A stretch of 64,000 bases of DNA from a candidate division WS6 bacterium OLB20 (GTDB lineage Bacteria; Patescibacteriota; Dojkabacteria; B142; OLB20): positions 67,981-131,980 of the forward strand of contig JYNZ01000005.1 in assembly GCA_001567355.1 (NCBI GenBank), in the 5' to 3' direction. Of the stretch, positions 131-58,905 are shown piece after piece. Both the position numbers and the translations under genes were made by a program. The notes under the pieces are model-generated. The model was not told the DNA's origin. It worked only from the letters and a program-made list of their open reading frames with translations, and did not search any database. Positions within the stretch are counted from its first letter, which is position 1; each line of letters starts with the position of its first letter.

Positions 131-132
131 AA

Positions 133-930: not shown

Positions 931-1127
931 ATCCATTCCTCTGCCGGACGACGCAATCATGGTGTTAACAATTAAGAAGTTGTTAAGTGCAATAACGTAT
1001 AATCAGAGTACGGAGCGGGCTGGCAAGCCCCGGGTGCCTAGATAGACATAGCGACTGTGGCTGTAGCAGTACCCACAGTCACCGTCCACCTGCTATAGTA
1101 TCAGCGTCTACCCTACTCAATACACCT

Positions 1128-1835: not shown

Positions 1836-2863
1836 TGGCAGATAACGCTCTTCCACCTTTATTTCCAGCACGAGCATTCTCAGGAAGTGAGAATGGACTT
1901 ATCCATCCGGATGCAATTCCGGTAGCACGATTTGAAGCACCACGCGATATCAGATCCCCATTGAGCCGCTCACTGGAGGAGCAGCTTGCACATGAGGATG
2001 AGCTGGTTCCCGTGCCACTTAGCATTAATCCTGATGTAATCTTTGAGCTTGATGCAGAAGGCATTCAGACTTATGAGGCAGTGCTCGAAGCATATCTGCA
2101 GAAAAAGGGGGTCGACCCGTCAACCATGGATGTGTCAACAGAGGAAATATTCAAGATGACCTATGAGCTCATCTCGTTTGCATCTGGTGAGCATGTAGAC
2201 GACCTGCCGACACCCGCTGCAAAGGACACCCTGAATCTGGACAGCCCGCCACCGACCAAGTGCAATATCTTTAACAGCGCCTATATCCATATGTTCGACC
2301 TGCTCAGCCGCAAAATGGGTCGCGAGGACGTTCCTCAAAAATACCGGTTGCTGCTGACTCCAGCGAATTACATCAACCACGATGTTACAGGCACAATCTG
2401 GCATGCTCATATTGCTCTCGTAACAGCAGATTCTGATGGAACGCTTCATACAAGCCTAATCGATCCGTACCATGCTGAAACAGACGAGGGCGGTCCTGCA
2501 GAAATCTCTGCGCTGGACTTTACAGAGGACAGAGGAACCGATGCTCTCATCAGCTTATTGAAACGCAGGGAGGTAAGACATACAATCACAACCCCTGGTT
2601 TCTTAAGCAGTTTATCGCAGCAGCAGAGGCAAATCCTGGCCAGATGGATATCAATACAATCAAAAGGATCAGGCAGAGCATCTACCGCAGCCGGTCACGT
2701 GGCGACAACTACGAAATCAACAGACTTGACTCACATATCAGGTCTCTTGAGGCAATTGACTCACCCACATCAGAAGACCTGGATATGCTGTATGACACAA
2801 GACGGCAACTTAATCTACTCATTTACGAACGTGCCCTGCTGTCAAACCACCTGGACCATCTGA
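1835..2863 (+). CDS. Hypothetical protein; the C-terminal roughly 70 aa look non-protein-like and overlap a second ORF in another frame
   Basis: The ORF is translationally coupled to the HAD gene. It is acidic with no recognisable domain. The tail (…WICCMTQDGNLIYSFTNVPCCQTTWTI) is compositionally odd. Confidence 0.4.
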   Translation: MADNALPPLFPARAFSGSENGLIHPDAIPVARFEAPRDIRSPLSRSLEEQLAHEDELVPVPLSINPDVIFELDAEGIQTYEAVLEAYLQKKGVDPSTMDVSTEEIFKMTYELISFASGEHVDDLPTPAAKDTLNLDSPPPTKCNIFNSAYIHMFDLLSRKMGREDVPQKYRLLLTPANYINHDVTGTIWHAHIALVTADSDGTLHTSLIDPYHAETDEGGPAEISALDFTEDRGTDALISLLKRREVRHTITTPGFLSSLSQQQRQILARWISIQSKGSGRASTAAGHVATTTKSTDLTHISGLLRQLTHPHQKTWICCMTQDGNLIYSFTNVPCCQTTWTI

Positions 2864-2901
2864 TGAGACTCGTTGAACAGCCTGATGAGACCCGGACCTG
2901 A
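2644..2901 (+). CDS. Small charged, helical ORF (85 aa) that overlaps the 3' end of the previous gene in another frame. It is either a separate gene or the true C-terminus after a frame change.
   Basis: Its translation (…RIRQSIYRSRSRGDNYEINRLDSHIRSLEAIDSPTSEDLDMLYDTRRQLNLLIYERALL…) is more protein-like than the overlapping tail of 1835..2863. A GAGG lies 14 nt upstream of the ATG. Confidence 0.25.
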   Translation: MDINTIKRIRQSIYRSRSRGDNYEINRLDSHIRSLEAIDSPTSEDLDMLYDTRRQLNLLIYERALLSNHLDHLMRLVEQPDETRT

Positions 2902-2941
2902 TAAGTAACCGGTGTCACTCAGAAAAAGTCCGGGTTCACTG

Positions 2942-3541
2942 TTAGAGTGTCTGTTTGCTCAGTTCGTAGAGACCGGGGTTGCCTGTAGAATCAGGGATAA
3001 CCTCATAAAGAACCACATACAGGGGTTCATCCGCCTCTGAGTATGTTACCGGTCCGTGATACCAGCTCAGTGTCGCTGTACCGTCAGATGAAACCGCGAC
3101 AGTGTTGGGATTAAACACAAACTGATTACTTTCAGCCAGCTTGCGGTCATTATCCGTATAGAGTTTAAACTGAAGAACCGTGTCGCTGCTGAGACTAAGA
3201 TCGGTGATGTCAAACTCGACAGAAAGCTGTGTATCGCTGTCAGTCCCACCTGGCTGCTGCCCGCTACCGGATCCGTCGCCCGGCTGAGGTGCTTCATTGC
3301 CGGCGCCGGCGGGTCGTCTCGTGACGGGAGGAACATATCTGCTGTCAGGATCATTAACACCAGGTTCGTAAACATCAACCGGACTGTTGTATACCGGTTG
3401 CGGTGAACCGCTGAAGATGACCAGACTGGACACGGAACATACCGCACAGCAGAGGATGCCGAATACGGACACAAGACATCCAATCACCAGGATTTTAATC
3501 AGACCGGAATCAGATGATCCGTTTGGAGTTGCGGAGGCCAT
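2942..3541 (-). CDS. Membrane-anchored hypothetical protein (N-terminal TM, Pro/Gly-rich linker, extracellular domain)
   Basis: A signal-anchor helix is followed by a low-complexity PGDGSGSGQQPGG linker and a roughly 100-aa C-terminal domain. Confidence 0.5.
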   Translation of the reverse strand: MASATPNGSSDSGLIKILVIGCLVSVFGILCCAVCSVSSLVIFSGSPQPVYNSPVDVYEPGVNDPDSRYVPPVTRRPAGAGNEAPQPGDGSGSGQQPGGTDSDTQLSVEFDITDLSLSSDTVLQFKLYTDNDRKLAESNQFVFNPNTVAVSSDGTATLSWYHGPVTYSEADEPLYVVLYEVIPDSTGNPGLYELSKQTL

Positions 3542-3601
3542 GAGCAGTTGCTAATACGTAGATAATCTACAGTATCATGCAACTGCTGCCATGTAAATTA
3601 C

Positions 3602-4813
3602 TCAGGAAGCAGTGCCGACAACAAAGGTCAGAGCTATTCCTGCTTTACCGGCTCGACCTGTACGGCCAATGCGGTGAATGTAATCCTTGTAGTTCTCGGG
3701 CTCATCATAATTGATTACGTGCGAGACGTTCTCAATATCAAGTCCCCGTGCTGCAACATCGGTTGCAATCAGAACATTGATCCTGTTTGAGCGGAACTCT
3801 GACAGAACACGTAAGCGTCTGTTTTGCGTTTTACCGCCATGGATCGAGTCAACCTTGTGACCGTTCTGGCTCAACCTTCGTGAGAGCCTGTCCGCTCCAT
3901 GCTTCGTTCTTGAAAACACAAGGACTTTGCTGAAGTCATCCTGACTCAGAAGCTTGCTGAGGACCGTAACCTTTTCATCATTCGAGCTGACCGGGACGAT
4001 GTCCTGATGTACATTTTTGTGCGCGGCCTCTTTTTCGATCTGGATAGTCACAGGATCCCGCAGGAGTGTGTGTGCAATGCGTTCTGCATCACGGGACATA
4101 GTTGCCGAGAAAAACAGTGACTGCCTGTCCTGAGGAAGTTTGGAGATCAGGAATGTGATAACTGGTACAAAGCCCATATCAAGCATTCTGTCCACCTCAT
4201 CAAGAACGATATTATTGAACTGGGACAGATCAAGCACTTTGCGTTCAAACAGATCTTTCAGTCTTCCGGGTGTGCCGATTACAAACTGGGGATTACGACG
4301 CAGGTTGCCGATCTGAGCACCCATGCTCGCACCGCCGATGACGACAGTCGAGTGGACTCTGCTACCGGCTGCAAGCGTGCGGAATTCATCCTGAATCTGC
4401 ACTGCCAGTTCGCGTGTCGGAACAATAATAAGACACCGGTCCGACTGTCTGCGGATTGTCTTATCAAGCATAGGAATTAAAAACGCATTTGTTTTGCCGG
4501 AGCCGGTACTTGCCAGCCCGAGCACATCGTGTCCTTCGCTGATCACAGGGATCGTTCGATCCTGGATAACTGTGGGGTATTTATACCCTTTTCTGGCAAG
4601 ATTCTGCTTGATTACTGTATGCAGGTTAAAGTCTGAGTACAGCTTATCCTCAACATAGATCGAGGGTGGCTGATAACCTTCCTCTGCCTTTGCAATATAC
4701 ATATGACGGGCAATGCTGTCACCCGACTGGCTTCTTGAACCAGAAGTTCTGCGCCCGAATGGACGCCTGTTGCTCACCCTGCGGCGTGACCTGCCGTAAT
4801 TTTTTCTATCCAC
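3602..4813 (-). CDS. DEAD-box ATP-dependent RNA helicase
   Basis: All the helicase motifs are present: Q-motif, GSGKT (Walker A), DEVD, SAT, and HRIGRTGRAG (motif VI). There is an Arg/Gly-rich N-terminus. Confidence 0.9.
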   Translation of the reverse strand: MDRKNYGRSRRRVSNRRPFGRRTSGSRSQSGDSIARHMYIAKAEEGYQPPSIYVEDKLYSDFNLHTVIKQNLARKGYKYPTVIQDRTIPVISEGHDVLGLASTGSGKTNAFLIPMLDKTIRRQSDRCLIIVPTRELAVQIQDEFRTLAAGSRVHSTVVIGGASMGAQIGNLRRNPQFVIGTPGRLKDLFERKVLDLSQFNNIVLDEVDRMLDMGFVPVITFLISKLPQDRQSLFFSATMSRDAERIAHTLLRDPVTIQIEKEAAHKNVHQDIVPVSSNDEKVTVLSKLLSQDDFSKVLVFSRTKHGADRLSRRLSQNGHKVDSIHGGKTQNRRLRVLSEFRSNRINVLIATDVAARGLDIENVSHVINYDEPENYKDYIHRIGRTGRAGKAGIALTFVVGTAS

Positions 4814-5023
4814 TGAATGTTCTCAAAAAAATAAATCCCGATTTCTTTCGGACGTACAAATTAGAAACCTGGGATTCATTTCGTGCGGGAATGCAGAAGT
4901 GCTCTCGAATCTAGTTTGGACGTAGTAGTGTATAGTAATTATAGCATTTGTCAGACAATTACCCTAGACTCTTTGCTCTTTTTTCTCTGTTGTAGCCTTT
5001 GAGTCCGAGTTATATACTCAGCT

Positions 5024-5518
5024 ATGGAACACACCGAAATCTCAAAGCAGGATGCACTTGCATTCCTGCAAAGCCAGTTCATCATGAATATCGCCTGTGT
5101 CTATAACGGCTTACCCGTCTCGTCGGTGCTGCTTTTTCATATCGACGACGAATGTAATTTCTACTTTGCCACACACCGTGACTCAATCAAGTCCAGAGCA
5201 CTTCTGAGCAACAGCAACGTTAGCCTCTCTGTCTGGGAGCATAATAAAATGCTGATCCAGGCTGATGGAGTGGCTGCAGAAATCACTGATACAAACAAGG
5301 CGATAGAGATAATTGACCGGCTTGCGGAATCGACCGCAAAGGGGGCTTCGTTCTGGCCACCCCTGTTCCGGATCAAAGGCGATTCTTATATTGTGTTTGC
5401 GATCAAACCGACCTGGATGCGTGCGCTCGACCTGACCCGGGACACAATGACACAGGAGGACTCTCCCTTTTCAACCATTATCAGTTCCGACAATGAAACA
5501 GGTAATAGTTCTGTTTAA
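5024..5518 (+). CDS. Pyridoxamine 5'-phosphate oxidase-like FMN-binding split-barrel protein (general stress protein 26-like)
   Basis: Size and sequence pattern (…FIMNIACVYNGLPVSSVLLFHIDDECNFYFATHRDSIKSRAL…SLSVWE…) fit the PNPOx-like family. Confidence 0.55.
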   Translation: MEHTEISKQDALAFLQSQFIMNIACVYNGLPVSSVLLFHIDDECNFYFATHRDSIKSRALLSNSNVSLSVWEHNKMLIQADGVAAEITDTNKAIEIIDRLAESTAKGASFWPPLFRIKGDSYIVFAIKPTWMRALDLTRDTMTQEDSPFSTIISSDNETGNSSV

Positions 5519-5882
5519 CGACTCTGATCCGGTTCTCGCCCGTGTCGCACGGGTTAAGTTAAAGACAGAAGCCGGATGGGATGTAAAGATCACTGCTAAT
5601 TACGATGAGGCTCTGCAGGCCGTTACTGCCACAGGTGCAAGTATTCTCGTGACAGAGCTTATCCTTGCTGATAATCAGGGAAGAACGGGATTTGATCTGA
5701 TAGAAGCAATCCGCAAAGACAAGTCACCAGAAGAGCTGCCGATAGTTGTTCTGTCAGAACTGAGGCAGGAAGAAGACAAAGCAGAAGCACTTGCAAAAGG
5801 CGCTGACTACTATTATGCAAAGTCAGAGATAGGTATCAAAGACCTGATAGAAAGGGTCCAGGAGATTATCGGGCAGGAATAA
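5493..5882 (+). CDS. Single-domain response-regulator receiver (CheY-like), with Glu at the phospho-acceptor position
   Basis: Receiver fold: acidic pocket NDSD, a Ser at the Thr87-equivalent position (VLSE) and a conserved Lys (YAKSE). The usual 'LD' phospho-Asp site reads TELILAD with Glu in place of Asp. The start overlaps the end of the previous ORF. Confidence 0.55.
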   Translation: MKQVIVLFNDSDPVLARVARVKLKTEAGWDVKITANYDEALQAVTATGASILVTELILADNQGRTGFDLIEAIRKDKSPEELPIVVLSELRQEEDKAEALAKGADYYYAKSEIGIKDLIERVQEIIGQE

Positions 5883-5895
5883 AATTACAAGTCGC

Positions 5896-7770
5896 TCAGG
5901 AGAGCCCAAGCTGCTGCTTAGCCATGTCTGTCAGGTTTTTTCGCTGCGACCAGTCACGTTCGTGCTTTTTAAGATAGCGCTTTCGCAGACGCAGACTCTT
6001 TGGTGTAACCTCCAGCAGCTCATCTTTTCCGAGGAAAACAAGTGCAAACTCAAAGGTCAGCTCTTTAACGCCCTTCAGCTGGACCTGTGTGATTTCAGCC
6101 TGATTGCGTCGCACTCCGCTCTTCTGACGCTCTTTTGTCGGATTGACCTCAAGGTCCTGTTCATATTTATTAATACCGATAATCATTCCCTCGTAAACAT
6201 CAGTAGCCGGAAAGATAAACAGCTCACCACGCTCCTGGATAGTATTAAGCGCATAGGCACTTGCCGGCCCTGTGTCAGAACTGATTAACGCACCTCTGCG
6301 GAAGAAGTCCTCATGCTTCTCCTGAGGAACATACTCAAGCAGATAATTGTTCATCACAAGATTGCCCTTTGTATCGGTCAAAAGTTTATGCCTGAGTCCC
6401 AGCAGACGGGACGTCAGGATAGTAAACTCCATTTTGGCCTGTCCGTTTTCTGTATCCATATTCTGCAGCTGTCCCTTGCGAACACTCACCTCGTTAAGGA
6501 CCGCTCCTGAATACTCCTCGGGGACTTCAACGTATAGCTCTTCAAGCGGCTCGTGTTTGACACCGTCAATAGTTTTAAGAATGACCTCCGGTCTGCGTAC
6601 CTGAAACTCAAACCCTTCACGCCTCAGCTCCTCAAGCAGAATAGCCAGCTGAAGATCGCCACGGCCGGCAACGTAAAATGACCCGTCATCATTCTTTTCG
6701 ATCTGCAGAGAAATATTAGTGTCTGCTTCGCGCTCGAGGCGCGCCTGCAATTGCTTGACTGTGACAAACTCACCTTCTCTTCCAAGAAACGGTGAAGTAT
6801 TCGCTTCAATCTTAATACGTACAGACGGGTCAGAGATTTTTATAACGGGTAGCGGTTCTATGTTGTCACGAGCGCAGACGGTGGCACCGATCGCTTTGGA
6901 ATCCACTCCCACAAGCGCAACTATTTCTCCAACAGATGCCGAGTCAGAGGGTACGAACTGAAGCCCTTGCTTTACAAGCACCTGCTTGACGGTTCCCTTT
7001 GCGTCAATGTCATGTCCGTTCTCTGCAGGCAGTGCGACGACTATATCGTCACCCGCCTTAACGGTACCACGTCTGATTTTTCCGACTAATGCGCGTCCGG
7101 TATGAGCATCAAATTCAAGTGTTGTCACCTGCATCTGCAACGGTCCGTTTTCGTCACCCTCAGGGCCCGGCACGTAAGACAGGATCTTATCAAGAAGCGG
7201 TCTGATATCTGCTTCCGCAGAGATATCAGCAGGCATCTCCTGCCATACCTTTCCATCGCGTCCAATCGCATAGAACACCGGAAACTCAAGCTGGTCTTCT
7301 GTCGTAGCCAGATTCAGAAACAGATCCTGCAGCTTATCGAGTGTTCTGGCGATGTCTGTAGCTGGTTTATCAATCTTGTTGATGACAACAATCGGCTTCA
7401 GGTTTAGCTCCAATGCCTTTTTAAGAACAAACCTGGTCTGCGGCATTGGCCCCTCAGCACCGTCAACGATCAGCAGACACCCTTCCGCCATATTCAAAGT
7501 CCGTTCAACTTCACCTCCAAAATCCGCATGACCTGGTGTATCAATAACATTAATACGATGGCCGTTGTATTCAATCGAAATATTTTTTGCCTTGATGGTA
7601 ATCCCCTTCTCACGTTCAAGCTCACCGGTATCAAGTATCATTTCCATATTCATCTCCTCCTGGTTGTCGCGGAAGATATTTGACTGCTTCAGAAATGCGT
7701 CTACGAGGGTCGTCTTCCCGTGGTCGACATGGGCGATGATGGCAATGTTGCGAATGTTCTCTTTATTCAA
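5896..7770 (-). CDS. typA: Translational GTPase TypA/BipA
   Basis: G-domain motifs (AHVDHGKTTL, DTPGHADF, NKID) at the N-terminus and an EF-G-like domain organisation. Length is 624 aa. Confidence 0.92.
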   Translation of the reverse strand: MNKENIRNIAIIAHVDHGKTTLVDAFLKQSNIFRDNQEEMNMEMILDTGELEREKGITIKAKNISIEYNGHRINVIDTPGHADFGGEVERTLNMAEGCLLIVDGAEGPMPQTRFVLKKALELNLKPIVVINKIDKPATDIARTLDKLQDLFLNLATTEDQLEFPVFYAIGRDGKVWQEMPADISAEADIRPLLDKILSYVPGPEGDENGPLQMQVTTLEFDAHTGRALVGKIRRGTVKAGDDIVVALPAENGHDIDAKGTVKQVLVKQGLQFVPSDSASVGEIVALVGVDSKAIGATVCARDNIEPLPVIKISDPSVRIKIEANTSPFLGREGEFVTVKQLQARLEREADTNISLQIEKNDDGSFYVAGRGDLQLAILLEELRREGFEFQVRRPEVILKTIDGVKHEPLEELYVEVPEEYSGAVLNEVSVRKGQLQNMDTENGQAKMEFTILTSRLLGLRHKLLTDTKGNLVMNNYLLEYVPQEKHEDFFRRGALISSDTGPASAYALNTIQERGELFIFPATDVYEGMIIGINKYEQDLEVNPTKERQKSGVRRNQAEITQVQLKGVKELTFEFALVFLGKDELLEVTPKSLRLRKRYLKKHERDWSQRKNLTDMAKQQLGLS

Positions 7771-17252: not shown

Positions 17253-20200
17253 TTAGAATGTTGCGCTTGCAATAAATGTCAGCTGATCTGTGTACGTACC
17301 TGTACCATCGAGATTATCAGGTGATACACCTATTCCAAATTCCAGTCTGAGCTGATCGATCGGTCCTCCGGCAGTATTATAGAGTTCGGTTGAAGTGGTA
17401 CTCACACTGCAGAAATAATCAGACCCGTTATCCCCATCACAGTCATCATGAATAAACACCCCACCCGTCAAAGCACTGTTGATCATTCCGGAGTGAGATA
17501 CAAGCCCGTACAAACCCGATCCCGCGGTAATCTGCACTTCACTGCCAGACGAGACACTGGGGATGGAGCCACCCGGAGATCCATTAAGATAGCCAAACTG
17601 CGAGCGCACCTGAACAACAGCTCCGCCGTTTGCATTGGTCGACAGATCAAAGAGAATTGAATTAATATCACCAGTAAGTCCGTCAGCATGCAAAGCACTG
17701 TCACCGGAACTCGACACATATGCAGGTGACAGCTCTCCCAGATCAACTGTATACCCTGCGTCATCATTTGCGCCCCCATGGCTTTCACACGGATCAGCCC
17801 CGCCCTGTGCATCACAATCCTCATCAGTTGCTGCAGTGTCAATATCAAACGTAATGAATGTATCGATATAGCCAGTGATATTTACAGTATCATCGTCAAT
17901 TATCGGGATCTCCACCTCTGCTGTTTCTGTCCCGCTGGAGTTTTCATTCTTTATTTGCAATTCGTAGGAGTCGACTGCCACAGGATTTACTATCTGGCTC
18001 ACGCCGCCATCGGCATTTGTGCCGATCTTTACAACAATCATACTCCCTGAATCAATGTAATCAGTGCCAGATGTTGGCGCAGTAAACGTTATTGTGTCTG
18101 TCACAGTGTCGATTGTGACACCCCAGGTATCAACCCCAGGTGCCGCAGCGAGAGTCTTATCTGTCCCATCATCCTCGATATCTATATCCGAGATTGATAT
18201 TGCCGACAGATCCCACCCGGTATCAAACCGGACTTCTGTGGTATCACCGGATGAATTAATTCCGTTTACAGTTGCGTACTTAATCAGATGATCACTTGCC
18301 TCTGATACCTGAAGCCTGGTTAGTGTATCCGAGACCCCATTAGGGATTGTTATCCCTCCTGTTCCGGTAACTCCTGCCACCTCAAAATAATCCTTACCTT
18401 CGAGTGTGACCAGAGAAACCTCATACTGACCGGTGATACCGACAGTCAGTGGTATACCATTGCTACATACTTGACTGATTCGCCCTGTTCTTTCAGCTCC
18501 CGGGCAGATGTGTACCATCACATCATCATCATCCCGCGGAATATACAGAGAATAACTTGAGCCAACGATACCCGGGATATTAACTGCCCCACCCGGGTAA
18601 TGCAGCAGAGATGCGTTGCCTGCACCGAAATCCGATTTATCACGAGAGAACACATTCATAACACCCCAGTCCCTTCCTGTGTCCAGATCGACTGTCAACT
18701 TTCCAACAATATACCCGTTTGACTCATCACGGACATATACCTCTTCTATTCCGGTAACCGTATTTTCACATACGTTCGTGTCATCATCGACAGTAGTAAC
18801 TGTAAAGTCTCCGCAAAGCATTTCTCCACTACCCGGGTCAGGAAGCACTGTGATCTCAGCCTTGTCACAGAGAGCACCGTTCAAGGCTCGAGCCTCGATC
18901 GAATATACCCCTGTCTGAAAAGGCTCGGGCACATTCTCCCCATTTGCGCTTGTGAGCGTTACGGTTGAGTTATCAGGCAGCTTGAGTGTAACCTCTCCGC
19001 CAAATATCTGATTCACATCACCGTTCATTACAGCTGACCATTGAAAGGGAGCACCCGAATCAACTGTTGAAACTGCAAAAGAGCCATTCTTGTGTAAACC
19101 TGTCAGACCGATCTGAAATCGTGCTTGAGTGGATCCAGTACATGTCTGATTCATAATCACTGTCGCCCCGAAAGGTTCAAAGTCTCCGGTTGCACCAGGG
19201 GCCGGTAAGACAGTCCCGCTGCCGGTCAAAGACGAGGTCGTTATTTTGATTCTTCCATCTCCTCCATCCCCGCCGTGTGTGCCATCGACAGAGCTTACGC
19301 CACCTGTACCACCTGTCGCTATAATCGAACCGTTATTCTCAAGCGTTTCAGCGTTAATCCATATCGCACCGCCAGAACCGCCACCTCCGGCGCCGGATTC
19401 TTCATCACTGACGGGAATAAGATCTGTGCCGTTACCACCTCGCGCACTAACAGTACCGGTTATATCTATAACATTTGCATTTATCCTCAATGCACCTCCT
19501 CCTGCACCTCCATTCTGCCCTAATCCTAACCCTCCGTCAGGCGGGGGACCATCCGTCCCGCCTCCTCCGCCACCTGACCCTCCAATCAGCACAGTGAGCT
19601 CTGCATCACCATAGGTGCCACCACCTGACGCACCGTAGCCGGCTGTTGTACATGACTGATAGTTCATCTGACCTTTTTCACCTGCCGTTGCGTAACCGCC
19701 CCCGCCGCCACCACTATAGACATCACCACCGTTTGAGACACAGCGCTGGCCTCCCTGACCACCTCCATCACCTTCCCCATCCACTCCCACAGTATCAGTT
19801 GTGTTAAAGGCATACCCCCCATCACTTCCAGCCAGCCTGCCGTATGCTGGCTGGCTGGTCACACGGTAGTTGGTAGCGCCAGGAGTGGTCATGCCATCAA
19901 CATTTATTTCGCCGGCTACAGTCATTGTTCCTGTGACGTTGAATGTGAGAGGATATTCTCCCGTTCCACTTACCACACCTCCACTCTCCACCGTCAGATT
20001 AGTAAATGTGTAGGTATTCAGTCTGTTTGTATCAAAATAAATAGTTTGTCCATTTTCCACAGTGAAATTTGTTTTATTGGCTGTCAGGTATACTGCCGGA
20101 TCCGGAGATGCCGTTCCGGCAAAAGAATTGCTACCTGAAAAGCTAATGCGGATCCTGCCTTGTGCTCCGTTTCCCCCATGAGTACCAAATGAATTGCTTG

Positions 20201-21060
20201 TTCCACCCGTACCACCCAGTGCCGACAGACTGCCCGAACCAGATATACTCGAGGCATCCAGATGAATACTCCCGCCGCTGCCGCCACCTCCGGCTCCGGA
20301 CTCGTTTCCGCTTGCAATAGAATAATTCCCGCCATTGCCGCCGTTTACGGTGATCTGACCATCTACTACGATTGTATTGGCATTAATTTGGACTGCTCCA
20401 CCGCCTGCTCCACCCCCTGCTCCCGGGCAGACACCAGAATCGCTATCCGCACCACCGCCACCACCACCAGATCCGCCGACTAACGTGTCCAGTCCGACAT
20501 CTCCATACCGCGTCCCCCCCATTTCCATCGGTTCTGGAATTTGCTCGTCCTCCTCCTCCAGTCGTCGCATATCCACCACCTCCTCCTCCCGATGAGATAT
20601 CACCTATTGAGCCCCATTCCGCAATTCTCCCGCCATAACCTCCGCCTGTTCCCTGTCCAATTCCACCTTCGCCATGCGTGGTAGCACCATTCCCTCCGTT
20701 TCCGCCGCCAGCAATACCCAATCCACCGGCATTTCCCGAGCATGATGCGGAATTTGAACCATTGCTGCCATTTAGAGAGAGCGTTCCATCAATTGTTACT
20801 GTGCCAGTAACATTGAGAATAAGTGGATTAGAACCTGTAGCGGTCAGGGTAGCACCAGAGGCAACGGTGATGTTGTCATAATAAAACCCGGAAGGATTAG
20901 CATCTGTATCAAGCACTGTTGTGCCCGAAGGGACATTGAGATTTGCTGCCTGACTTCGGCTTGCACCAAAAAACAATGCGACAACAAATATCAGCAGTAT
21001 TATGGCAGTTCGCTCTCGTCGGTTCATGACGGACTTGTTAGCTAACCTACGCCGGATCAC
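17253..21060 (-). CDS. Large secreted Gly-rich repeat protein of about 1270 aa (predicted beta-helix-like), interrupted by a 1-nt frameshift in a C7/G7 homopolymer at 20514..20520
   Basis: The N-terminal part (20443..21060) has a signal peptide. The main ORF (17253..20603) is in the -1 frame. Removing one G restores …RTDGNGGTRYGDVGLDTLVGG…, which aligns with internal repeat 2 (…GGGTYGDAELTVLIGG…). There are three similar modules (GGxGGG…INAN…GGNG…GAGGGGSGG…GGTGG…THGG). Confidence 0.6.
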
Positions 21061-25854: not shown

Positions 25855-27339
25855 TCAGGATTTTGTATCCTGCGGAGTTTGAGAATCAGCATCTGTAGCG
25901 GACTGATTGTCTTCATCCTTTTCCTGTTCTTTTTCGAGTTGCATCTTTAGTTCCTTCATTTTCAGTTCGCGACCGATCATTGTCTGGGTCAACTCCTCCA
26001 GCTCTCCGACCTTATCCGCCAGCTCTTTTTCAACTTTCTTTTGTGCAGAAATATCGGCGATTATTCCTCGAGCTCCGACAATCACGCCATTTACCTCAAT
26101 CGGTGCAGAAAACAGGATTACCGGAAACTCTGTTCCGTCTTTTTTACGTGCGGTCAACTGACGGTTTTCAATGCGTGCGCTTGCCGGAGTCTGCCTGGCC
26201 ACTTCTTTACTCGCCTCATCGGCAAACAGATCACACAGTTTATGACCATCCAGCAGCTCCTCTTTTGTGTACCCGAACAATGGTTCTATGTAATCATTTA
26301 CGTAGGTCAGATAACATTCATTATCCGCCTCAAAGATAGTCTGCGGGAGAAGGTCTGAAAGTTCCTGATACCGTGTCTCTGATTCCTTTAGCTTGGAACT
26401 TGTCTTCTCTGCCTGAGCCTGCATGGATAATCCATACCTGCGTGCGACCATAATATAGATCAGCGCAATCACGATCAGAATAACTGAGGCGATCGCCAGC
26501 GGGCGGATCCAGTCCGGCTCGACCTCAACCTGTTGAATATTGAGGCGTAATTCATCGATAATTGACTCGTAATAAACACTTTCCGGATCGCTCTTTAGCG
26601 AACGAATATGCTTGTCTATCGTCTCGATCATCACCGGTGTATCCTGGTCGTCTTTATTGAGGGCAAACTTCAGTTCAACGGGGTTAAAAACAAGACTTGT
26701 CTGCTCGACGTTATAATTTGACCCGATGAAGTCTCCGAACAGCCTGTTAACGACTGCAATATCTGCATCTCCACGTTCCACTGACTCTATTACGTCCTCA
26801 TATGACTGCAGCCGTAAATACTCGGCTTCCAGTTCAAACGCCTCCATAAGACTGCTGATACCCAACGGACCGGTGAAGTGGATATCCTCATCAAGTACAG
26901 CTATTCTTTTGTCGGCAAAGTCACCAAATGACTCAACTCTGGAACCAGGGCGGACGTAAACAGCTGCCCAATTAATAAAGGCTGTCTCAGAGGTAAACTC
27001 AAAACGCAGGGAGCGCTCTGCAGAGAAGGCGATATCAGTTATAATATCCACCTCGCCATTTTCGAGACGCGTCAGCCCTTCATCAAATGTTCCGGGAACA
27101 TATTCAATTATCCAGCCCTCCTGCCCGGCAATGTAATCAAGAAGCTCAGGCCAGAAGCCGACAACCTGTCCGGCGTCATCTGTGTATATTTTCGGGGGAT
27201 TTTCCGAGAGCGCTACCCTGACAATGGTCTGCTCCTCCTGTGCGCGAACGTCTGCTGCCAGTGATGGTGCTGCAAGCAGGGCAATAACTATGAAGATATG
27301 CAGAAACCTTTTCAAAAGAATTTCCTGTAATGCGGACAT
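25855..27339 (-). CDS. Membrane sensor: periplasmic solute-binding (SBP_bac_3-like) domain, TM, PAS domain, and a C-terminal coiled-coil tail; no kinase, cyclase or other output domain
   Basis: Signal peptide, then about 250 aa of SBP-like sequence, one TM, a PAS-like region (…TIFEADNECYLTYVNDYIEPLFGY…) and a charged coiled coil (…MIGRELKMKELKMQLEKEQEKDEDNQ…). Confidence 0.7.
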   Translation of the reverse strand: MSALQEILLKRFLHIFIVIALLAAPSLAADVRAQEEQTIVRVALSENPPKIYTDDAGQVVGFWPELLDYIAGQEGWIIEYVPGTFDEGLTRLENGEVDIITDIAFSAERSLRFEFTSETAFINWAAVYVRPGSRVESFGDFADKRIAVLDEDIHFTGPLGISSLMEAFELEAEYLRLQSYEDVIESVERGDADIAVVNRLFGDFIGSNYNVEQTSLVFNPVELKFALNKDDQDTPVMIETIDKHIRSLKSDPESVYYESIIDELRLNIQQVEVEPDWIRPLAIASVILIVIALIYIMVARRYGLSMQAQAEKTSSKLKESETRYQELSDLLPQTIFEADNECYLTYVNDYIEPLFGYTKEELLDGHKLCDLFADEASKEVARQTPASARIENRQLTARKKDGTEFPVILFSAPIEVNGVIVGARGIIADISAQKKVEKELADKVGELEELTQTMIGRELKMKELKMQLEKEQEKDEDNQSATDADSQTPQDTKS

Positions 27340-27928: not shown

Positions 27929-28807
27929 TTGAAACGACGAAATTATGCGACAGTCGGATTGATAGTTGTGCTGCTGGTCGTGGTAGCAGCTGCAATCTTC
28001 ATTGGAATATTTCTGAGCCAGGAACCAAGTGTCGCGCCGCAAAAGACTGACGCCCTCGTTGATTACAGCACCAGATATGGCAGCTGTTCCGGAAACTGCA
28101 ACAGCGGAGCCGAATGCAATGGCTACGGAAACCCACCGGCTGGCACAATGTTCTCCTGCTGGCTGCACAACGGTTCCTACGGTTGCTTTGCAGAAACAAC
28201 CAACTCCGGCGGCAGTCAGTGTTATCTCAGCTGTTCAAGCGGCTGGCAGCCCTGCGGCTGCGATATCGCTGCCTGTGAACAAAGCTGCAGAAATCAATAT
28301 GCCGGACAACCTGGCTATCATGAGTACACTGCGATCTGTGCAGGTTGTCAGCAGAAGTTTACCTGCAGCTGCAACATTACGGTAACCAATACACCAACAT
28401 ATACACCATCACCTACAACGCCGGTTACAAACACTCCGACAAATTCGCCAACGCCAACAAATTCGCCGACACCAACAAACACTCCGTCACAGACACCATC
28501 AAGCACACCAAGCAGTACGCCGACAGCAACCATAACAAACACGCCATCGCCAACACCATCTGTTACGACCACCATTGTTGAAACCCCTACACCGACGCCG
28601 ACAGCATCACCATCCGGCACGCTGCCACCGACAGCGCTGTTCAGCGACGAAACTGATCGCGCCCTTATCGGCCTGGTACTTATCATCGCAGGCATGACCT
28701 TCTACCTGCTGGGACTGCATAACTCCTTCGGTTTTCTTTATAAAACACGACCAGAACGCAAGGCGGAGTTTGAAGACCGGATAAACAGCTCAGGCAGTCC
28801 TGATTGA
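27929..28807 (+). CDS. Cys-rich secreted protein with a (T/S)P-repeat stalk and a C-terminal TM anchor
   Basis: An N-terminal signal anchor is followed by a 16-Cys domain. Then comes about 90 aa of TPTNSPTPTNSPTPTN low complexity. The protein ends in a C-terminal TM helix and a basic tail. Confidence 0.55.
   Translation: MKRRNYATVGLIVVLLVVVAAAIFIGIFLSQEPSVAPQKTDALVDYSTRYGSCSGNCNSGAECNGYGNPPAGTMFSCWLHNGSYGCFAETTNSGGSQCYLSCSSGWQPCGCDIAACEQSCRNQYAGQPGYHEYTAICAGCQQKFTCSCNITVTNTPTYTPSPTTPVTNTPTNSPTPTNSPTPTNTPSQTPSSTPSSTPTATITNTPSPTPSVTTTIVETPTPTPTASPSGTLPPTALFSDETDRALIGLVLIIAGMTFYLLGLHNSFGFLYKTRPERKAEFEDRINSSGSPD
28425..28500 (+). repeat. In-frame tandem nucleotide repeat encoding PTPTNSPTPTNSPTPTN
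   Basis: ccaacaaattcgccgac appears in about 3 tandem copies. Confidence 0.6.
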
Positions 28808-47881: not shown

Positions 47882-50800
47882 ATGGTACGAGTTGCCTATT
47901 CAGGTAAGGATATTCCTCATATGCGGAATAGATTTGCCCGGTTGCCACACAAGGCACGAGCTGTATTCAGACGTCCTGCCTTCCGGGCAGTTTCGGTTTT
48001 CAGTCTCATACTTTTTCTGCTTGCACCTGTATTTCTCCCTCTTTTAGTCAGTGCTGCGCCGGTTCCATCACTTGTTGTATCACTGCCTGCAGAGACACTT
48101 ATCGGGGAGGATGTATCATTCAGTATCTCGTTTCAGAATACCGGGACAAATGAAGGTTACGGACCATTTATTGACCTGATTTTTCCCTTCACCGGTGCGG
48201 ACGGTATCTACCCGTTCAGCCCAGGTCTGGAGGAAGACGGCCTTGATTTTGTATCAGCTTCATTTTTAAGTACGCCGCTGACGACCTCAGTGTTTCAGTT
48301 TACCGACACCGAGCCCTGCGTAGACCATCCCTATGCAGTAGACACAAGCGGTCAGCCCATCTCCATCTGCGGCACACCTGGTGACAAACTGGTTGTGCTT
48401 CAGCTTCCGTTCGGCTCATTTGTGCCGGGACAGCCTGATGTCGATGTCAGCGTTAATGCCACCCTTCACAACTGGGCAGATGCCGGAACTGATCTGACAG
48501 TGCAGGCGCGTGGCGGTTTTCAATTTGGTGCAACACCGGCAAATGACTTTACTACCGATCCCTCAGTACTAAACACATTTTCAGATTACGACACGACACC
48601 GACCGTATTCAGCATTCGCAAAAATTATGTCGGGCCTGAGGATGAGACAGCTTCGGGACAGAACTTCCCGCGCGAGTTCAACCTCTTTGTTGACATTGCT
48701 GACAGCCTCACACTGACTGATTTTGTGATGAACGATAATCTTGATAACCGGGTTGTCTACGATGGATTCGGCAGCAGCAGTCCCTCCGCCACAATAACTG
48801 ACACTCCTGGTACGCCCGGTGCCCAGAACCCGCCAGCTAACAATCTCACACTTGAATGGGCGTCACTTACCGGTACTACGTCGGGCACAGATGCAAGTGC
48901 CTCATTTGACTTTTATGTTGACCGGCTGGATGCTAATGCCGCCAGCGTAATCAATCCAACTGCGGGCGGTTGTGTAAACATTCCAAACGATATTTCCGCC
49001 ACAGCGGACTGGGATCCTGATGATCCGAGAGACAGCATCACACCCGTCAGCTCTGATGTGACACCTACAGATGAAACGTTTGAAGCATGCAGCATGGTAA
49101 TTCAGAAGTCAGTAGCCATGGCAAGCGATACCGGACCTGCCGGTTACACGCCGGGCGACATCGTGCAGTACACACTTAATTTCCAGGTCTCTGACTACTT
49201 TGCGCTGAGTGATGTCATCATCAACGATCTCATGTCAGACGGTCAGCGGTTTGATACAGGCTTCACTCCGACACTCAGCTTTACCTCACATGGTGTCAGC
49301 ACTTCAGGAGCGATGGATCCGTCAAGCTTCACTGTAACCGATCACTTTACTGGTGGAGCGCCTGCTGTCCCGCCGATTGAAGGTACACAGGAGGTAAGTT
49401 TTGACATCTCGGGAGAACTGTCGACACGCAGCTATATTTCGGGCAGTGACCTGATAGGAGGATGCGTTCCGTTTGGCGGAGGTGCAATCGACTGCACAGG
49501 GTCAAGTGCAACGACAGGAACGCTTGTCTTCAGGGCAGAGATCCAGGAACTCTTTACAGACGAATATGCACCGCAGAACGATAATGTTGATCAGGGAGAC
49601 ATTCTTACCAACTCAGTCGAGATAAGCGGTCAGATTCTTGTTAATTCGACCCTTGCAGGTACGGGCAATTACGTGAGCGAAGGCAGCGGAGCAACATTCA
49701 GCATCCTCAATGGCGCGCTTGCAGTCAAAGACATCTATGCGATCAATGGAATCACAGGATCCTACTCCACACCGGCAATTGGTCCGGGTGATACAGTCAC
49801 ATATCGTATCCGTTTTGAGATGCCTACATCCGATGTCGAGGATCTTGTGATTACCGACTATCTGCCACTTCCGGTTTTTGAGGCGACAGAAATCACAACC
49901 TTTGATCCGACGGTTAATGCAACCGTGCCACCCGCAGGTACCGTTAAATTCGGAGCTAATGACACATTCTTTGCCCTGACAGGAATCACCCCGATACTGA
50001 CAAATGACGGCACCTCAAATACATTCACACTGGATTACGGCAGCAATCAGGAGGTGACAGAGGTAAGCTCGGTTATCGAACTCTACGTAACCGTCACGGC
50101 CTCAGATGAACCGTTTGCAGATGGCCTGTTTCTGACCAACCAGGCTCAGTCAACGCAGGGAACAACCAACAGTACAACCGAGACTGCCACGCAGATTGTC
50201 CAGGTGGAGCTGACACTGCCGAATCTGCAAATCACAAAGGGAATTATCGCCACGGACGGTCCGGCAGGAGTATTTGACCCTGCCCCCCCTGCTCCGGAAT
50301 CGGTCACAGCACCTGATACTGCGGGATTCCGGTTCGGAGGGACGGTAAGCTCATCAGATCTTGATGCAAATCCTATGGACAGTAATCTGAGTGATGTTGA
50401 CTCGGATGATCTGGTCAGTTTTGTTATCGTTGTTGAAAACACCGGTCAGGGTGTCAACGGCGCATTTGACGTCGGCATCTCAGACACACTGCCGGCTGAT
50501 TTTGTCATCCCTGTAGCCGGTAACGGTCTGAATCTGAGAGTAACCGATGGTGCCGGCAATCCCCTCTCATGGACTGCCGCTGATGGTACTGATACTGTCC
50601 CGCTGTTTGAAGACGGGATTATTCTTGATGACGGTGTGACTGGCGCGCTTGATGCATATGACACCTCATCCGGCGGCAATATAGCGCTTATCACCTACGA
50701 TCTGCAGATTGTTAATGATGTTGAACCGGAAAGCCTGATCGAAAACACTGCCACTCTGTTTCAGTATGCAAGTACCGAAGGCGGCCCCGACTTTGTCTCA

Positions 50801-53800
50801 ATCAACCAGACGGATGCTGCCGAAGTCAGTGGCACAAAAGCACCTGACATCTCAAAATCATATACCACCACAAACCATGCCGGCTCGACCGATCCGGATG
50901 TGGTCGTTGGCGAGCAGATCACCTATGAGGTCGTTCTCGATATCCCTGAGGGCGAAATGACTGGCACAGACCTTACCGATACACTCGACAGCGGTCTTGC
51001 CCTGCTCGGTATCGACTCAATTGTTGCATCCAGTGGCGACGTGACGACAAGCCATGCCGGCGGTTTTGCAGGTGTTGCTGCTGACATAGTTGTAACAAAC
51101 AGCGGCAGAACAATCGAGTTTCCGTTTGATACGATCACTAATGTAAATACCGATGACGGAGTGACCGAGACTATCACCGTGACCTATACAGTGGTTGTGC
51201 TCAACAACAACCAGATCTATCGTGATCGGGCACGCAATAACAGCGCAGTATTCACCTATCAGAACGGTACCGTTTCCGACAGCGCCAGCAATGTCAATGT
51301 TGCCGAGCCGACACTCCAGATTACCAAAACACCTTCTCCGACAAGTGCAGATGCAGGCGATACGGTCACGTTTACTCTGGTGATCAGCCATACCGGGGCC
51401 AGCGATGCCAATGCCTACGATGTTCAGCTGGAAGATATCATCCCGACGGGTATGACCTATGTTGCGGCAAGCGTCAGCCATGATGCAGGCCTTGCTCCTG
51501 ATAACGGTCCTTCCGAGTCAGGCGGTACAATCAGTGCAACCTGGAACACATTTCCGGATGACGGATCCACGAGCACGATCAGTTTTGATGTTACCATTGA
51601 CAGTACCGTGCCTCTGGGCGGAACAGTCACCAATACTGCAGGGATCGAGTGGACAAGTCTGCCAGGAGATATAACAGCCGATCAGTCTACCTATGCATCA
51701 CCCTCAACAGAGCGTACCGGCGATACGGGCAACCCCGGAGGCTCCGAAAATGACTACACCACCTCTGCAAACGGTCCGGTTTCCATTCTGTCCGTTAACC
51801 CGGTCAAGACCATAGCTGCAACGTCTGAGGCATCCACGACCGCCCTGAGCGGGATCGAACGCGTAACGGTCGGAGAGATTGTCCGTTACCGGATGGTCAT
51901 ACGAGTAGCAGAGTCAACTGCGACAAACCTGCAGTTACGTGACAACCTGTCCACAGGCATGCAGTTTATCGATGATGGTACAGCCATGGTGGCATTTGTC
52001 AGCAACGATGCCGGAATAACTTCATCAACACTGATACCCGGCAGCATCGGCTGCGACGGGGGCAGCAATCCCGATATAGCGTTCACTGGTAATCAGACAA
52101 CTGTATCGGGGATAACTCCGGAATGTCCGCTGCCTGACAGTGCAGTCAGTAACTCAGCCGGTTCCGATGTTGATACATACGCCTCCGGCACTGATATTTA
52201 CTTCAAGCTTGGCAATGTCGTCAATGATGACCGCGACGGCGATGACGAGCTGATCGTTGTCGAATTCAACGCACTCGTCAGAAACGAAGCGAGTAATGTC
52301 AGCGCGACAAACAGGGACAACACATTTAACGTATTTGAAAACGGCTCGAGTGTTGCAGTATCAACAACAGGCAACTCGAGCAGAGTACGGATTGCAGAAC
52401 CTGTTGTTTCTGTTGCCAAAGCGGTGACTGTTGCGCCAACGGATGCCGGTGACGCGCTTCAGTACACTATTACGGTCACCAATACGGATACCAGTGTCAA
52501 CGGCGCATCAGCCTTTGACTTCACTGTAACCGACACAGTCCCTGCTGAGGCAGCTGTCCAATCGGTATCTGTCAGCACGCCAAACGGGTATACAGATAAT
52601 TCTTCAGGGCAGAACGTCAGTGTCGTGCTGGATACTCTCGGCAAGGGTCAGGCGGCAACCATCACAATTAATACATTTGTCTCATCCGTAGTTCAACCCG
52701 AAGAGATTATCAGTAATTCAGCGTCTGCAGTCTGGACCAGCCTGCCGGGAACAAACGGTACGACCGGCAACCCCACAGGGTCGGCAAACAGCGGTTCTGC
52801 AGGCACAGCGACTGGTGAACGCACAGGACAGGATGGTGTCGGCCTGCTTAATGACTACACTGCTTCGAGTACTGCAAACACATCAGTCGGCTCGGTAATA
52901 ATCGATAAACTGTCACCTTCTCCGACGAGCTATCCGATCGGTTCATCAGTTGACTACGATATCCGGGTGACCCTGCCCGAAGGAACTGTCAGCAATGTCG
53001 TTGTAACCGATTTTGTCCCTGCCGGAATGGATTACACCGGGTACCAGGTCATCACTACCTCGGGTACAAATCTGCCCCAGACATTTGCAGGCAGTGTTCC
53101 TGCACCGTCAGTATCCGGGGGTACGGGAAGCGGCTCGGATGTATCATTTACATTCTCAAGTATCTCAACAACGGCCGATAATGATACCGGCAACAACAGT
53201 TTTCTGGTGCGGGTCACACTTGTCATACTTAACGAACTGACAACACAGCGAGGCGATACACTTGGTAATACCGCGGGACTTGTATTTGATAATCCGAACG
53301 GCCCTGGCACATTGGCCGAAAACGATCTTGTCCCGGAAAATATCACCGTACTTGAGCCGATTCTGCAGCTGACAAAGACTGCTTCTTCAGTCCCGGCTGA
53401 GGTGGAGGCAGGAACAACGGTCGAGTATGAGATCGAGGTGCAGCATCACGCAAACAGCAACAGTACAGCACATGATGTAGTCATCAATGACCCTGCACAA
53501 AGCAATCTGACGATCACAGGTGTATCGGTCAATGTAACCGGGTCAATCAGTACACCAAGTTCCACCTTTACCGGCAATACGGTTCGTGTTCCGGCAAGCG
53601 GAAGCTTTGACCTGCCAGATGATGGAACAATCGTAACGGTAACAGTGACAGCGACCGTCAGTGCAGGAGCAAGCGAGACGATTACAAACATTGCCGATAC
53701 GACATGGGCTTCAACAGATCTACCAAACACCAATGCGCGCACTGACGGCAGTGGTGAGTATGACCTTGCCGAGTCAGGCGCGACAGGACTTAACGACTAC

Positions 53801-57630: not shown

Positions 57631-58110
57631 ATGCGACTCAAAATAGTCTCTCTGCTCCTGTTCGTGACTATATTCGTAACAGCCTGTACACCTGCTCTGC
57701 CTGAGGATACCAATTCTGATCCGTTCAGCACCGAAAACGGCAGCGGACAGACCGGTACCCCGACCGCAGAACCCCTGACCGAAGAGGAACGCCAGCAGGC
57801 GGAAGAACGAAACCAGGAACGTGACAACGAGGCACAGCAGATCGCGGAGGCGGTAAACGAGTTTACCTCGAAAGGCGGGCAGCTGCAGGAAGCAGAACTG
57901 ATTCCCTCCTGCGATGACGGTGTTACCGGTATCGGTACGATCAAAGGACTTATCAGTCTTGATAATCTTATCCCGCAGTATCTGAGTGAGATACCGACAG
58001 ACCCGCGCACAGGTTCTGCCAACGACAGCGGTTATGCCCTCTGCCGCTCAGGCGATGACATCGTCGTCACGGCGCCCAACGCAGAACTGGATCGCGAGAT
58101 CAGGAAGTAG
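57631..58110 (+). CDS. Lipoprotein with a pseudopilin (GspG-like) C-terminal motif
   Basis: Lipobox VTAC after the signal peptide (start moved to MRLKIVSLLL). The C-terminus QYLSEIPTDPRTG…GYALCRSGDDIVVTAPNAELD resembles the GspG YLxxLPxDPWG…Y…GDD…D block. Confidence 0.45.
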   Translation: MRLKIVSLLLFVTIFVTACTPALPEDTNSDPFSTENGSGQTGTPTAEPLTEEERQQAEERNQERDNEAQQIAEAVNEFTSKGGQLQEAELIPSCDDGVTGIGTIKGLISLDNLIPQYLSEIPTDPRTGSANDSGYALCRSGDDIVVTAPNAELDREIRK

Positions 58111-58905
58111 TTTTACCCTGCTCATCATTTTTACTGCTACCATTCTGCTGCTGTAGCTGTTTCTTCAGCTGGATCATTTTAAGTTCACGACCGATCAGCG
58201 TCTTATTCATCGACTCCAGATCCTTGTTTACATCTTCAAGCTTGTAGACTGACTCACTCAGACGCTTTTTTAGTCGATGTCAGTTCTTCAAGCTGCGAGC
58301 GCAGCTGTGCGTTTTTTAGCATCGATCTCTGCCAGGTGCTTCCCTATCACAGAACGGCTGGCGTCTGCGGCAGACTGAAACAGCCATATCATTACAAACA
58401 CAAATGACAGTGTCAGAACAAACATGAAGTACTCAAACTCACTGTACAGGAAAGTAAATGATGCAGTTGTCCTGGCCAGCAGAAAGAAAACAAATGTGGT
58501 CAGGACAAAGAACGCATGGAGATAAAACCCGAGATGCCTGCCGACCAGAAACACTGTGATAGGCGGCAGAACATAACACCACAGGAGTCCTGTTTCGTAA
58601 AACCCGCCTGAGATGAAGTTATGCAGACAGATTACAAATAACGGAAGCACGCCGATCGTCGCCGCAGGTTGCATCCGCTTGGTGCTTAAGCCTGTCAGCA
58701 TTGAAAACAGGATAATCGCAGCGAGGAGAAGCTCGAGTGCAGCAATTGGGTAGTCGGCGATCGAAAGGTTGATAAGAGTGTAGGCAATGAATACGACAAA
58801 GCCGATACTACCGAATACGATCAGAAAGCGCACGCGGGTCGTCTCCTCTTCTGTTGATGCCCGGGGCTTAAAGATATCAGTGAAGTTTTTCAGCAGTCGG
58901 TTCAT
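58101..58905 (-). CDS. Membrane sensor-like protein (5-6 TM) with a C-terminal coiled-coil tail homologous to that of 25855..27339, interrupted by two homopolymer (T6/A6) frameshifts
   Basis: The 205-aa ORF (58288..58905) ends at …EIDAKKRTAALAA*. Removing one A at 58304..58309 and one at 58267..58272 gives …EIDAKNAQLRSQLEELTSTKKRLSESVYKLEDVNKDLESMNKTLIGRELKMIQLKKQLQQQNGSSKNDEQGKTTS*. Confidence 0.5.

Follow-up and report, generated by a model that had tools for sequence, protein, structure and literature searches.

The stretch of DNA analysed here, called the window throughout, comprises 64,000 nucleotides (nt) of contig JYNZ01000005.1 from candidate division WS6 bacterium OLB20. It carries two genes for membrane sensors, gene 1 and gene 2 (Table 1), which have unrelated N-termini and end in the same kind of tail, here named module A. 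Tails of this family are found in Bacteria and Archaea, and in many genomes the gene that follows encodes a histidine kinase, often one bearing a conserved repeat of its own, module B. The initial annotation of the window had proposed that the two tails are homologous and form a signalling or partner-recruitment module, and this interpretation is supported by our results.

Architecture of the two sensors and similarity of their tails

Gene 1 had been described as a domain resembling periplasmic solute-binding proteins (SBPs), followed by a transmembrane (TM) segment, a PAS domain and a charged coiled coil, and all of these parts were recovered. The SBP_bac_3 match (55.5 bits) and a PAS_9 match at residues 334-431 (42.9 bits) are above the Pfam cut-offs, and the PAS S-box model TIGR00229 of NCBIfam spans residues 318-440. 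Residues ~441-494 are covered by no Pfam or NCBIfam model, and the match of the protein to YtvA_fam (NCBIfam) is below that model's cut-off of 250 and not significant (14.9 bits, E 0.014). The AlphaFold2 (AF2) model has a mean predicted local distance difference test (pLDDT) score of 79. It shows the SBP alpha/beta fold at residues 38-264 (pLDDT mostly >80), a helix at 278-330 and the PAS domain at 334-429, from whose last strand one unbroken helix emerges (431-479, pLDDT ~70-86), with a disordered end after it. The Gly-Arg-Glu of the core motif lies at residues 456-458 of 494; the input domains are present and a kinase is absent.

Gene 2 is interrupted. Its uninterrupted open reading frame (ORF; 58288..58905, minus strand) encodes 205 amino acids (aa) and bears the MASE6 domain (31.0 bits, gathering cut-off 27.4), while the tail can be read only after two +1 frame changes, both at A6 runs and 46 nt apart. 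One shift would not be enough: frame 1 runs into its stop codon (58288-58290) ahead of the point where frame 0 opens (58279). The true stop is at 58100-58102. A homologous tail had been claimed for gene 2 once its frameshifts were repaired, and indeed it appears with these two shifts; in other respects the coordinates and peptides quoted in that annotation are exact. In the repaired protein, which has no kinase, the motif lies ~31 residues before the end. An independent assembly matches the window 100% over 7,744 bp, elsewhere than gene 2. Such identity implies that errors are not common throughout the window. The frameshifts may accordingly be real, and gene 2 may be a recent pseudogene rather than the product of sequencing error. 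No relatives of gene 2 were found in a metagenome scan, and a look-up found no record of its 205-aa product. A Logan contig from SRR29904083 starts at ~58252, beside the frameshift region.

Table 1. Features of the two module A sensor genes, in window coordinates
Feature	Position	Strand	Support
Gene 1, membrane sensor (SBP_bac_3 - TM - PAS - module A tail), no kinase or other output	25855..27339	-	494-aa ORF
Gene 1 periplasmic SBP_bac_3 ligand-binding domain, residues 41-253	26581..27219	-	Pfam PF00497, E 6.4e-15
Gene 1 TM plus juxtamembrane helix, residues 278-330	26350..26508	-	AF2 single helix; hydrophobic stretch PLAIASVILIVIALIYIMVA in translation
Gene 1 cytoplasmic PAS domain, residues ~323-440	26020..26373	-	PAS_9 E 6.4e-11; TIGR00229 E 1.2e-16
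Gene 1 module A tail, residues ~427-479, helix	25903..26061	-	Independent profile and AF2
Gene 1 core motif MIGRELKMKELK, residues 454-465	25945..25980	-	Regular expression match; aligned to family consensus VGRELKMIELKK
Gene 2, MASE6 membrane sensor with module A tail, 267 aa after repair; three frames as assembled	58103..58905	-	
Gene 2 MASE6 multi-pass membrane sensor domain, residues 21-177	58375..58845	-	Pfam PF20966, E 3.2e-07
Gene 2 first frameshift site, A6 run on coding strand, +1 shift	58312..58317		T6 on plus strand
Gene 2 second frameshift site, A6 run on coding strand, +1 shift	58266..58271		T6 on plus strand
Gene 2 module A tail, last frame	58118..58243	-	Independent profile, 42.0 bits, E 1e-12
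Gene 2 core LIGRELKMIQLK	58163..58198	-	Regular expression match

The N-termini of the two proteins are unrelated, as had been noted, one being SBP_bac_3-TM-PAS and the other MASE6. It had also been stated that neither has a recognised output, and in agreement with this no HisKA/HATPase_c, GGDEF, EAL, HD or DNA-binding domain was detected in either protein at the Pfam and NCBIfam cut-offs. HAMP (PF00672) gave no match in them at E<=1.

The pattern [ML]IGRELKM-x2-LK occurs at two sites only across the six frames of the window, each at the C-terminus of gene 1 or gene 2. Direct BLASTP alignment of the tails reveals only moderate similarity, with 63% identity over 16 aa and E 5e-6. As independent material, 56 tails were taken from other organisms, none of them WS6, and the profile made from them was run on 565 six-frame pieces of the window. 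This independent profile matched the tail of gene 1 (residues 427-475; 49.4 bits, E 4e-15) and that of gene 2 (Table 1), and no other piece of the window, coiled-coil segments included, matched even at E<=10. The shortness of the BLASTP alignment and weak matches to Pfam coiled-coil families (CCDC85 and Lge1, E about 0.1-0.2) are what could be expected if the likeness arose by chance from charged heptad-repeat composition. The probability of this is negligible given the profile values, the placing of both motif copies at sensor C-termini and the size of the family described below, and this explanation was rejected. The shared tail of gene 1 and gene 2 is real and goes well beyond chance.

A third carrier of module A lies ~4.9 kb to the left of the window. 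It is a soluble PAS protein of 166 aa (3316-3816, plus strand, of locus L085), which was matched by the independent profile with 27.1 bits and E 4e-8 and ends in ...LMDAAITREKRMIELKEVIRQIW... / ...LDISEQVKLREKLDDSLQKLDTLMDAAITREKRMIELKEVIRQIWEQLRNFGQETV. Positions 7863-15606 of L085 correspond to window positions 1-7744, and L085 adds 7.9 kb to the left.

Module A in other genomes

Module A is a helix of ~45 residues with the consensus ELE[RK]F-[NQ]-x-L-[TA]-VGREL[KR]MIELKKE[IV]-x2-L, after which 10-25 variable residues lead to the stop codon; in a subset of tails it goes on with ...LGxxP[KR]Y[KR]IVE. Ten positions in an anchored logo of 261 tails (L-10, E-9, F-7, G-1, R0, E+1, M+4, E+6, L+7 and K+8) are each >=92% conserved, which marks a specific motif and not a generic heptad composition. 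An exhaustive HMMER search with a 10-tail profile covered 1.84 billion representative proteins (50%-identity clusters). Such a profile search had been suggested in the initial annotation as a way to more carriers, and it did find many: 16,010 clusters reached E<=1e-3, of which 1,401 reached E<=1e-10. Among the best 150 matches the match end is almost always ~10-45 residues before the protein end, and the distance of the motif from the C-terminus is nearly always 20-45 residues. Eighty loci were obtained when one genome per species was scanned with a narrower tail alignment. These belong to Deltaproteobacteria, Chloroflexota, Bacteroidota, Nitrospirota, Acidobacteriota, Actinomycetes, methanogens and relatives of anaerobic methanotrophic archaea (ANME), and also to at least ten lineages of the candidate phyla radiation (CPR) and several DPANN archaea. 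Cultured carriers include Draconibacterium orientale (L024), and L071, L073 and L079 come from relatives of Anaeromyxobacter, Bdellovibrio or Oligoflexus.

The carriers are varied in their input domains. Among 100 carriers of >=200 aa, Pfam detected PAS in 91, REC in 16, PocR in 10, GAF in 9, HAMP in 5 and dCache in 4, with CBS, CHASE4, CheR and SBP_bac_3 found once each; HisKA, HATPase_c, GGDEF and EAL are absent from the families listed. Together with MASE6 in the window, this range bears out the proposal of a portable module attached to different inputs. A purpose-built hidden Markov model (HMM) of the kinase core matched two of 183 carriers of >=200 aa and left 181 without a kinase core. 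In several carriers (P0006, P0153, P0169, L026) an ERT-type S-helix directly precedes module A.

No Pfam or NCBIfam model of module A was found, and a profile search of the PDB with it returned only insignificant generic coiled coils (best E 0.099). Literature searches on the motif strings, MASE6, output-less PAS proteins and split kinases yielded no description of the module. The initial annotation spoke of an undescribed output domain. It was right that no entry of these libraries covers the tail; because module A is a single helix, however, docking or transmitter module is a better name than output domain with an activity of its own.

The protein of gene 1 is 100% identical to P0001, a protein of a candidate division WS6 metagenome-assembled genome at NCBI, which places the window in Dojkabacteria, a CPR lineage. 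The same tail, and no kinase, is found in two close WS6 homologues of gene 1, P0002 and P0003 (43% identity), and in a more distant SBP-PAS-PAS relative, P0006 (32% identity). The closest kinase-bearing homologue is P0005 (32% identity over 86% of the gene 1 protein length), in which the same SBP-TM-PAS front end is followed by HisKA-HATPase_c; in P0001-P0003 and P0006 module A stands at the end in place of these domains. A kinase on the same front end, the frameshifts of gene 2 and the resemblance of the first half of module A (...N-x-ELE-x-F) to the stalk that leads into phytochrome-type HisKA (NKELEAFSYSVSHDLRAPL) would all fit tails that are histidine kinases truncated after the junction of PAS with the dimerisation and histidine phosphotransfer (DHp) domain, either as pseudogenes or as assembly artefacts, or a DHp helix 1 without its His. 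Such an origin is very unlikely. The stop codon comes 20-45 residues past the motif in thousands of clusters, and in ~80 assembled genomes a real stop codon is found 20-38 residues after it, so that full-length homologues are not truncated kinases. In addition, the kinases encoded downstream are complete, have their own start and often have their own sensor domains. Comparison of module A with HisKA regions by hhalign gave 3-11% probability, with an alignment that ends at the Phe; only the ELExF stalk was aligned, and the reading as a pseudo-HisKA or His-less DHp helix was rejected as unsupported.

Genes next to module A carriers and the reciprocal module B

The gene downstream of a carrier is usually on the same strand, at a gap of -3 (an ATGA overlap) to ~20 nt. 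The kinase-core HMM matched 30/81 downstream genes, against 8/65 upstream genes. By Pfam, 30 of 70 same-strand downstream genes encode HisKA with HATPase_c and seven encode CheR, and the remaining ones include HAMP, dCache, NMT1/ABC-type binding proteins, FIST, HD proteins and unrelated genes. The initial annotation had asked for a conserved soluble partner or gene neighbourhood. In other lineages there is one, a histidine kinase immediately downstream, often with LNILED repeats, but none was found beside the WS6 genes.

Many of the downstream kinases carry at their N-terminus 3-6 tandem copies of a 21-residue repeat, TQRAxLNILEDFxxEKxxLEx, which we call module B. Others, including four CPR kinases, have a single B helix between HAMP and PAS. 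The B-repeat kinases are composed of B, HisKA or HisKA_2 and HATPase_c, and a sensor domain is absent in 8/10. Module B is covered by no Pfam model and has no homology to module A. A strict B pattern was present in 22/70 downstream proteins. It was found in 0/61 proteins of the first upstream gene, 1/47 of the second upstream gene, 0/36 control PAS/kinase proteins and 2/100 carriers. Loci with module B are L053, L054, L060, L066-L068, L070, L071, L076-L079, L083 and L086-L165. The association also holds in the reverse direction. Starting from B alone in metagenome contigs, an ORF with an A tail was found to end just upstream, in a separate frame, at 61 of the 63 loci with enough upstream DNA.

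In a few proteins module A is internal and is followed by a low-complexity linker of 30-45 residues. In P0166, P0171, P0205, P0209, P0233 and P0258 this linker leads to a B-like helix and a PAS domain. The B helices found in cis are diverged and the B-repeat HMM is too narrow for them, and they were recognised with a relaxed regular expression and by inspection.

Tail subtypes track the class of the partner. Plain tails go with B-repeat kinases, tails of the type ...GKEPxYKIVG with dCache-HAMP hybrid kinases and tails of the type ...EKYRIVE with CheR. For this reason the conserved core may be a common structural element, and the variable end may set specificity.

Carriers with a tail that ends in ...G-x3-[KR]-Y-x-I-V-E have a CheR gene downstream in L008, L012, L019, L022, L024 and L032, and a CheB/CheR fusion in L030 (8176-10740). 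The CheR start overlaps the carrier by ATGA in some loci (L008, L012). This KYxIVE-type tail may be a substrate or tether for orphan CheR-type enzymes. The idea can be widened to module A, or at least to this subtype, as a substrate or tether for CheR-type methyltransferases and CheB/CheR fusions, in an adaptation of soluble PAS sensors like that of methyl-accepting chemotaxis proteins (MCPs). Besides the CheR neighbours and the single fusion, it draws on the EKYRIVE-like ends of those carriers, which recall the NWETF tether of chemoreceptors, and on conserved Glu residues on a coiled coil, like the methylation sites of MCPs. Nevertheless, we consider it improbable: no MCP methylation consensus is seen in the A core, only a minority of the neighbours are CheR genes, and most carriers, all three WS6 proteins included, have neither a KYxIVE end nor a nearby CheR. 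The WS6 tails end in acidic/polar low-complexity sequence.

Carriers also often occur in tandem. Four are present in L030 (Candidatus Delongbacteria) and two each in L045, L052, L056, L057, L075, L080 and L084, interleaved with genes for periplasmic binding proteins (NMT1, ABC_sub_bind) and with kinases. This tandem and interleaved order suggests arrays of sensors per kinase. In L004, the ENA contig with P0018, a signalling cluster is split into short calls, with HisKA, HATPase_c and two Response_reg fragments as separate ORFs; it looks like a frameshift-rich assembly, and a Response_reg gene begins one base past the carrier stop.

In the WS6 genome, gene 1 is followed downstream by a 72-aa ORF and a convergent 221-aa ORF, neither with a Pfam match, and gene 2 by a convergent 172-aa ORF; there is no kinase at either place. 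The 72-aa ORF 3' of gene 1 was considered as a partner and discarded, having no Pfam match and no small gene called in its place beside P0003. One single-domain response regulator was detected at ~5451-5879 on the plus strand (Response_reg E 1e-10, 129 aa as called in L085). A PNPOx-like gene (5024-5518) is overlapped by it at the end, and apart from the A-tailed sensors the window contains no other two-component element. The presence of this regulator shows that a phosphorelay exists in the WS6 genome.

Other ORFs of the window deserve mention. The ORF at 47882-56272 (plus strand) encodes 2,796 aa and adjoins a sortase gene at 56365-56970 (minus strand). In a Dojkabacteria sequence (CP129475.1, locus L001) a gene for a 2,794-aa protein with faint bMG10/CLIPPER matches lies three genes downstream of the gene 1 orthologue, and the 2,796-aa ORF is probably a conserved giant surface protein. 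A 292-aa ORF at 27929-28807 (plus strand) has a Cys-rich N-terminal half, long Thr/Pro/Ser-rich repeats, a hydrophobic C-terminal segment and no Pfam match, and looks like a cell-surface or mucin-like protein. Two ORFs on the minus strand, of 1,116 aa (17253-20603) and 205 aa (20443-21060), overlap by ~160 nt, and neither has a Pfam match; they could represent a single gene whose frame changes, or else a long orphan.

Module A as a candidate docking helix

We consider it moderately probable that module A serves as a docking or transmitter helix by which a sensor without a kinase is coupled in trans to another protein, most often a histidine kinase. We read it as a docking helix because A sensors and B kinases are encoded as translationally coupled pairs and are sometimes fused, a pattern typical of two components that act in physical association; contact between A and B, or between A and the kinase, and the direction of signalling are what we infer. 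A kinase-less sensor that ends in A would dimerise, and the A helix, which directly continues the last PAS strand or the MASE6 membrane domain, would carry a conformational signal. This signal would pass in trans, with A docking onto the helical stalk of its partner. In many lineages a sensor-less kinase with 3-6 B repeats and an A sensor would make up a split sensor kinase, with A and B as the link between its two parts. In WS6, the sensors of the solute-binding-protein/PAS type, the MASE6 type and the small soluble PAS type would feed one partner. Three different A-tailed sensors occur within about 64 kb, and this suggests that they share it; most likely they converge on one partner encoded elsewhere in the genome, whose existence is postulated from this clustering.

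A wider form of the proposal is tentative, and we hold it to be possible but doubtful. Modules A and B may act as a general plug and socket on the stalk of sensor-less or multi-sensor kinases, each repeat being a possible socket, so that a kinase with 3-6 repeats could integrate several sensors. The pair in cis would chain sensor blocks of one polypeptide, and the WS6 trio would report to one hub kinase.

Several observations weigh against the docking proposal. Kinases make up only about 40% of the downstream genes, and since the others are of various kinds module A may not have a single kind of partner. Gene adjacency alone is no proof of contact. No kinase, convincing B motif or CheR-type gene was found in the 64-kb window or in the 7.9 kb to its left, and no signalling gene adjoins gene 1, gene 2 or the Dojkabacteria orthologue P0003. 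Gene 2 carries two frameshifts. The core is degenerate in the WS6 homologues P0002 and P0003 (NREETM and EREISM), which suggests that the constraint is relaxed in the WS6 clade. Finally, an internal A with its flexible linker is sometimes followed by PocR or CBS without B, an arrangement that fits a capping dimerisation helix equally well.

Such a capping helix would be a coiled coil for homo-oligomerisation only, stabilising the sensor dimer without any partner, and the carriers would work as ligand buffers or via their PAS domains. The single long amphipathic helix of the AF2 model and the heptad spacing of the hydrophobic positions in the logo agree with this, as do the flexible linkers, with no rigidly joined domain, after internal copies of A and the finding that kinases account for less than half of the downstream genes. 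We think it unlikely all the same. Conservation of >=92% across Bacteria and Archaea and a Gly-Arg-Glu in the middle of a helix are not needed for plain dimerisation, and the pairing with sensor-less B-repeat kinases at 61 of 63 loci and the coupling by ATGA overlap would be left unexplained.

The docking proposal can be compared with several known systems. The S-helix, reportedly described by Anantharaman, Balaji and Aravind in 2006, is said to be a coiled-coil linker of sensor proteins with an ERT signature that joins two domains in one polypeptide. The S-helix and module A are both helices of ~40-50 residues after PAS, HAMP or GAF that are thought to transmit conformational change. However, module A is terminal or stands before a flexible linker, its core is F-x5-G-R-E-x2-M-x-E-L-K, and no ERT is present in the tails of gene 1 and gene 2. 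Short LOV/PAS proteins (YtvA-like and PpSB1-LOV types) signal through a C-terminal J-alpha helix, which pairs in a dimeric coiled coil. They share with the carriers a PAS core and a signal-carrying C-terminal helix, but J-alpha lacks the conserved GRELKMxELK motif. In chemoreceptors, a C-terminal pentapeptide and methylation helices work with CheR/CheB. Coiled-coil sensor ends near CheR-type genes, and one tail subtype with a conserved extreme C-terminus that contains an aromatic residue, are points of likeness. On the other hand, the carriers have no MCP signalling domain, the A core has no methylation consensus, and in WS6 the tails are without KYxIVE and the window without CheR. The docking domains of polyketide and non-ribosomal peptide synthases are a short helical C-terminal tail and an N-terminal head on consecutive gene products, fused in cis in related systems. 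These belong to another protein class and have other sequences, and the likeness to A and B is by analogy, in the logic only.

Split histidine kinases are known, such as CheA3/CheA4 of Rhodobacter sphaeroides and Hik36-Hik43 of Synechocystis (PMC3591291, PMC7656254). As in the A/B pairs proposed here, one functional sensor kinase is spread over two co-encoded polypeptides that must associate. CheA3/CheA4 are split inside the kinase, with the phospho-acceptor P1 apart from the dimerisation/catalytic P3/P4 (PMC3591291, PMC7656254), whereas the A/B pairs leave the kinase core whole and are divided between sensor block and kinase, where the conserved helices A and B mark the division. MopJ of Caulobacter is a single-domain PAS protein without an output domain that acts on a two-component pathway in trans (PMC4432633, PMC4620464), and in both respects it resembles the carriers. 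No A-type tail is described for MopJ in the abstracts, whereas the module A family is defined by its tail and is tightly operon-coupled to a kinase. Accessory or split sensors are thus known as an idea, while the specific and widespread A tail and its B counterpart appear to be undescribed in the literature and libraries searched.

Genome annotations commonly contain sensors with input domains only and no output, and these mostly go unexplained. One conserved helix terminates a large share of such proteins, amounting to no fewer than 1,400 distinct 50%-identity clusters and probably many thousands; it is genomically locked to histidine kinases, many of them sensor-less and with a matching conserved repeat. 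If A-B docking is true, sensor kinases would be put together from separate parts in a manner both new and widespread, partners could be assigned to thousands of orphan sensors and orphan kinases, and the pair would offer a compact natural connector, possibly orthogonal, for the engineering of signalling proteins. If the hub-kinase reading is true as well, it would represent an undescribed wiring of many inputs to few kinases. Module A is frequent in CPR bacteria and DPANN archaea, and it gives a first handle on their signal transduction.

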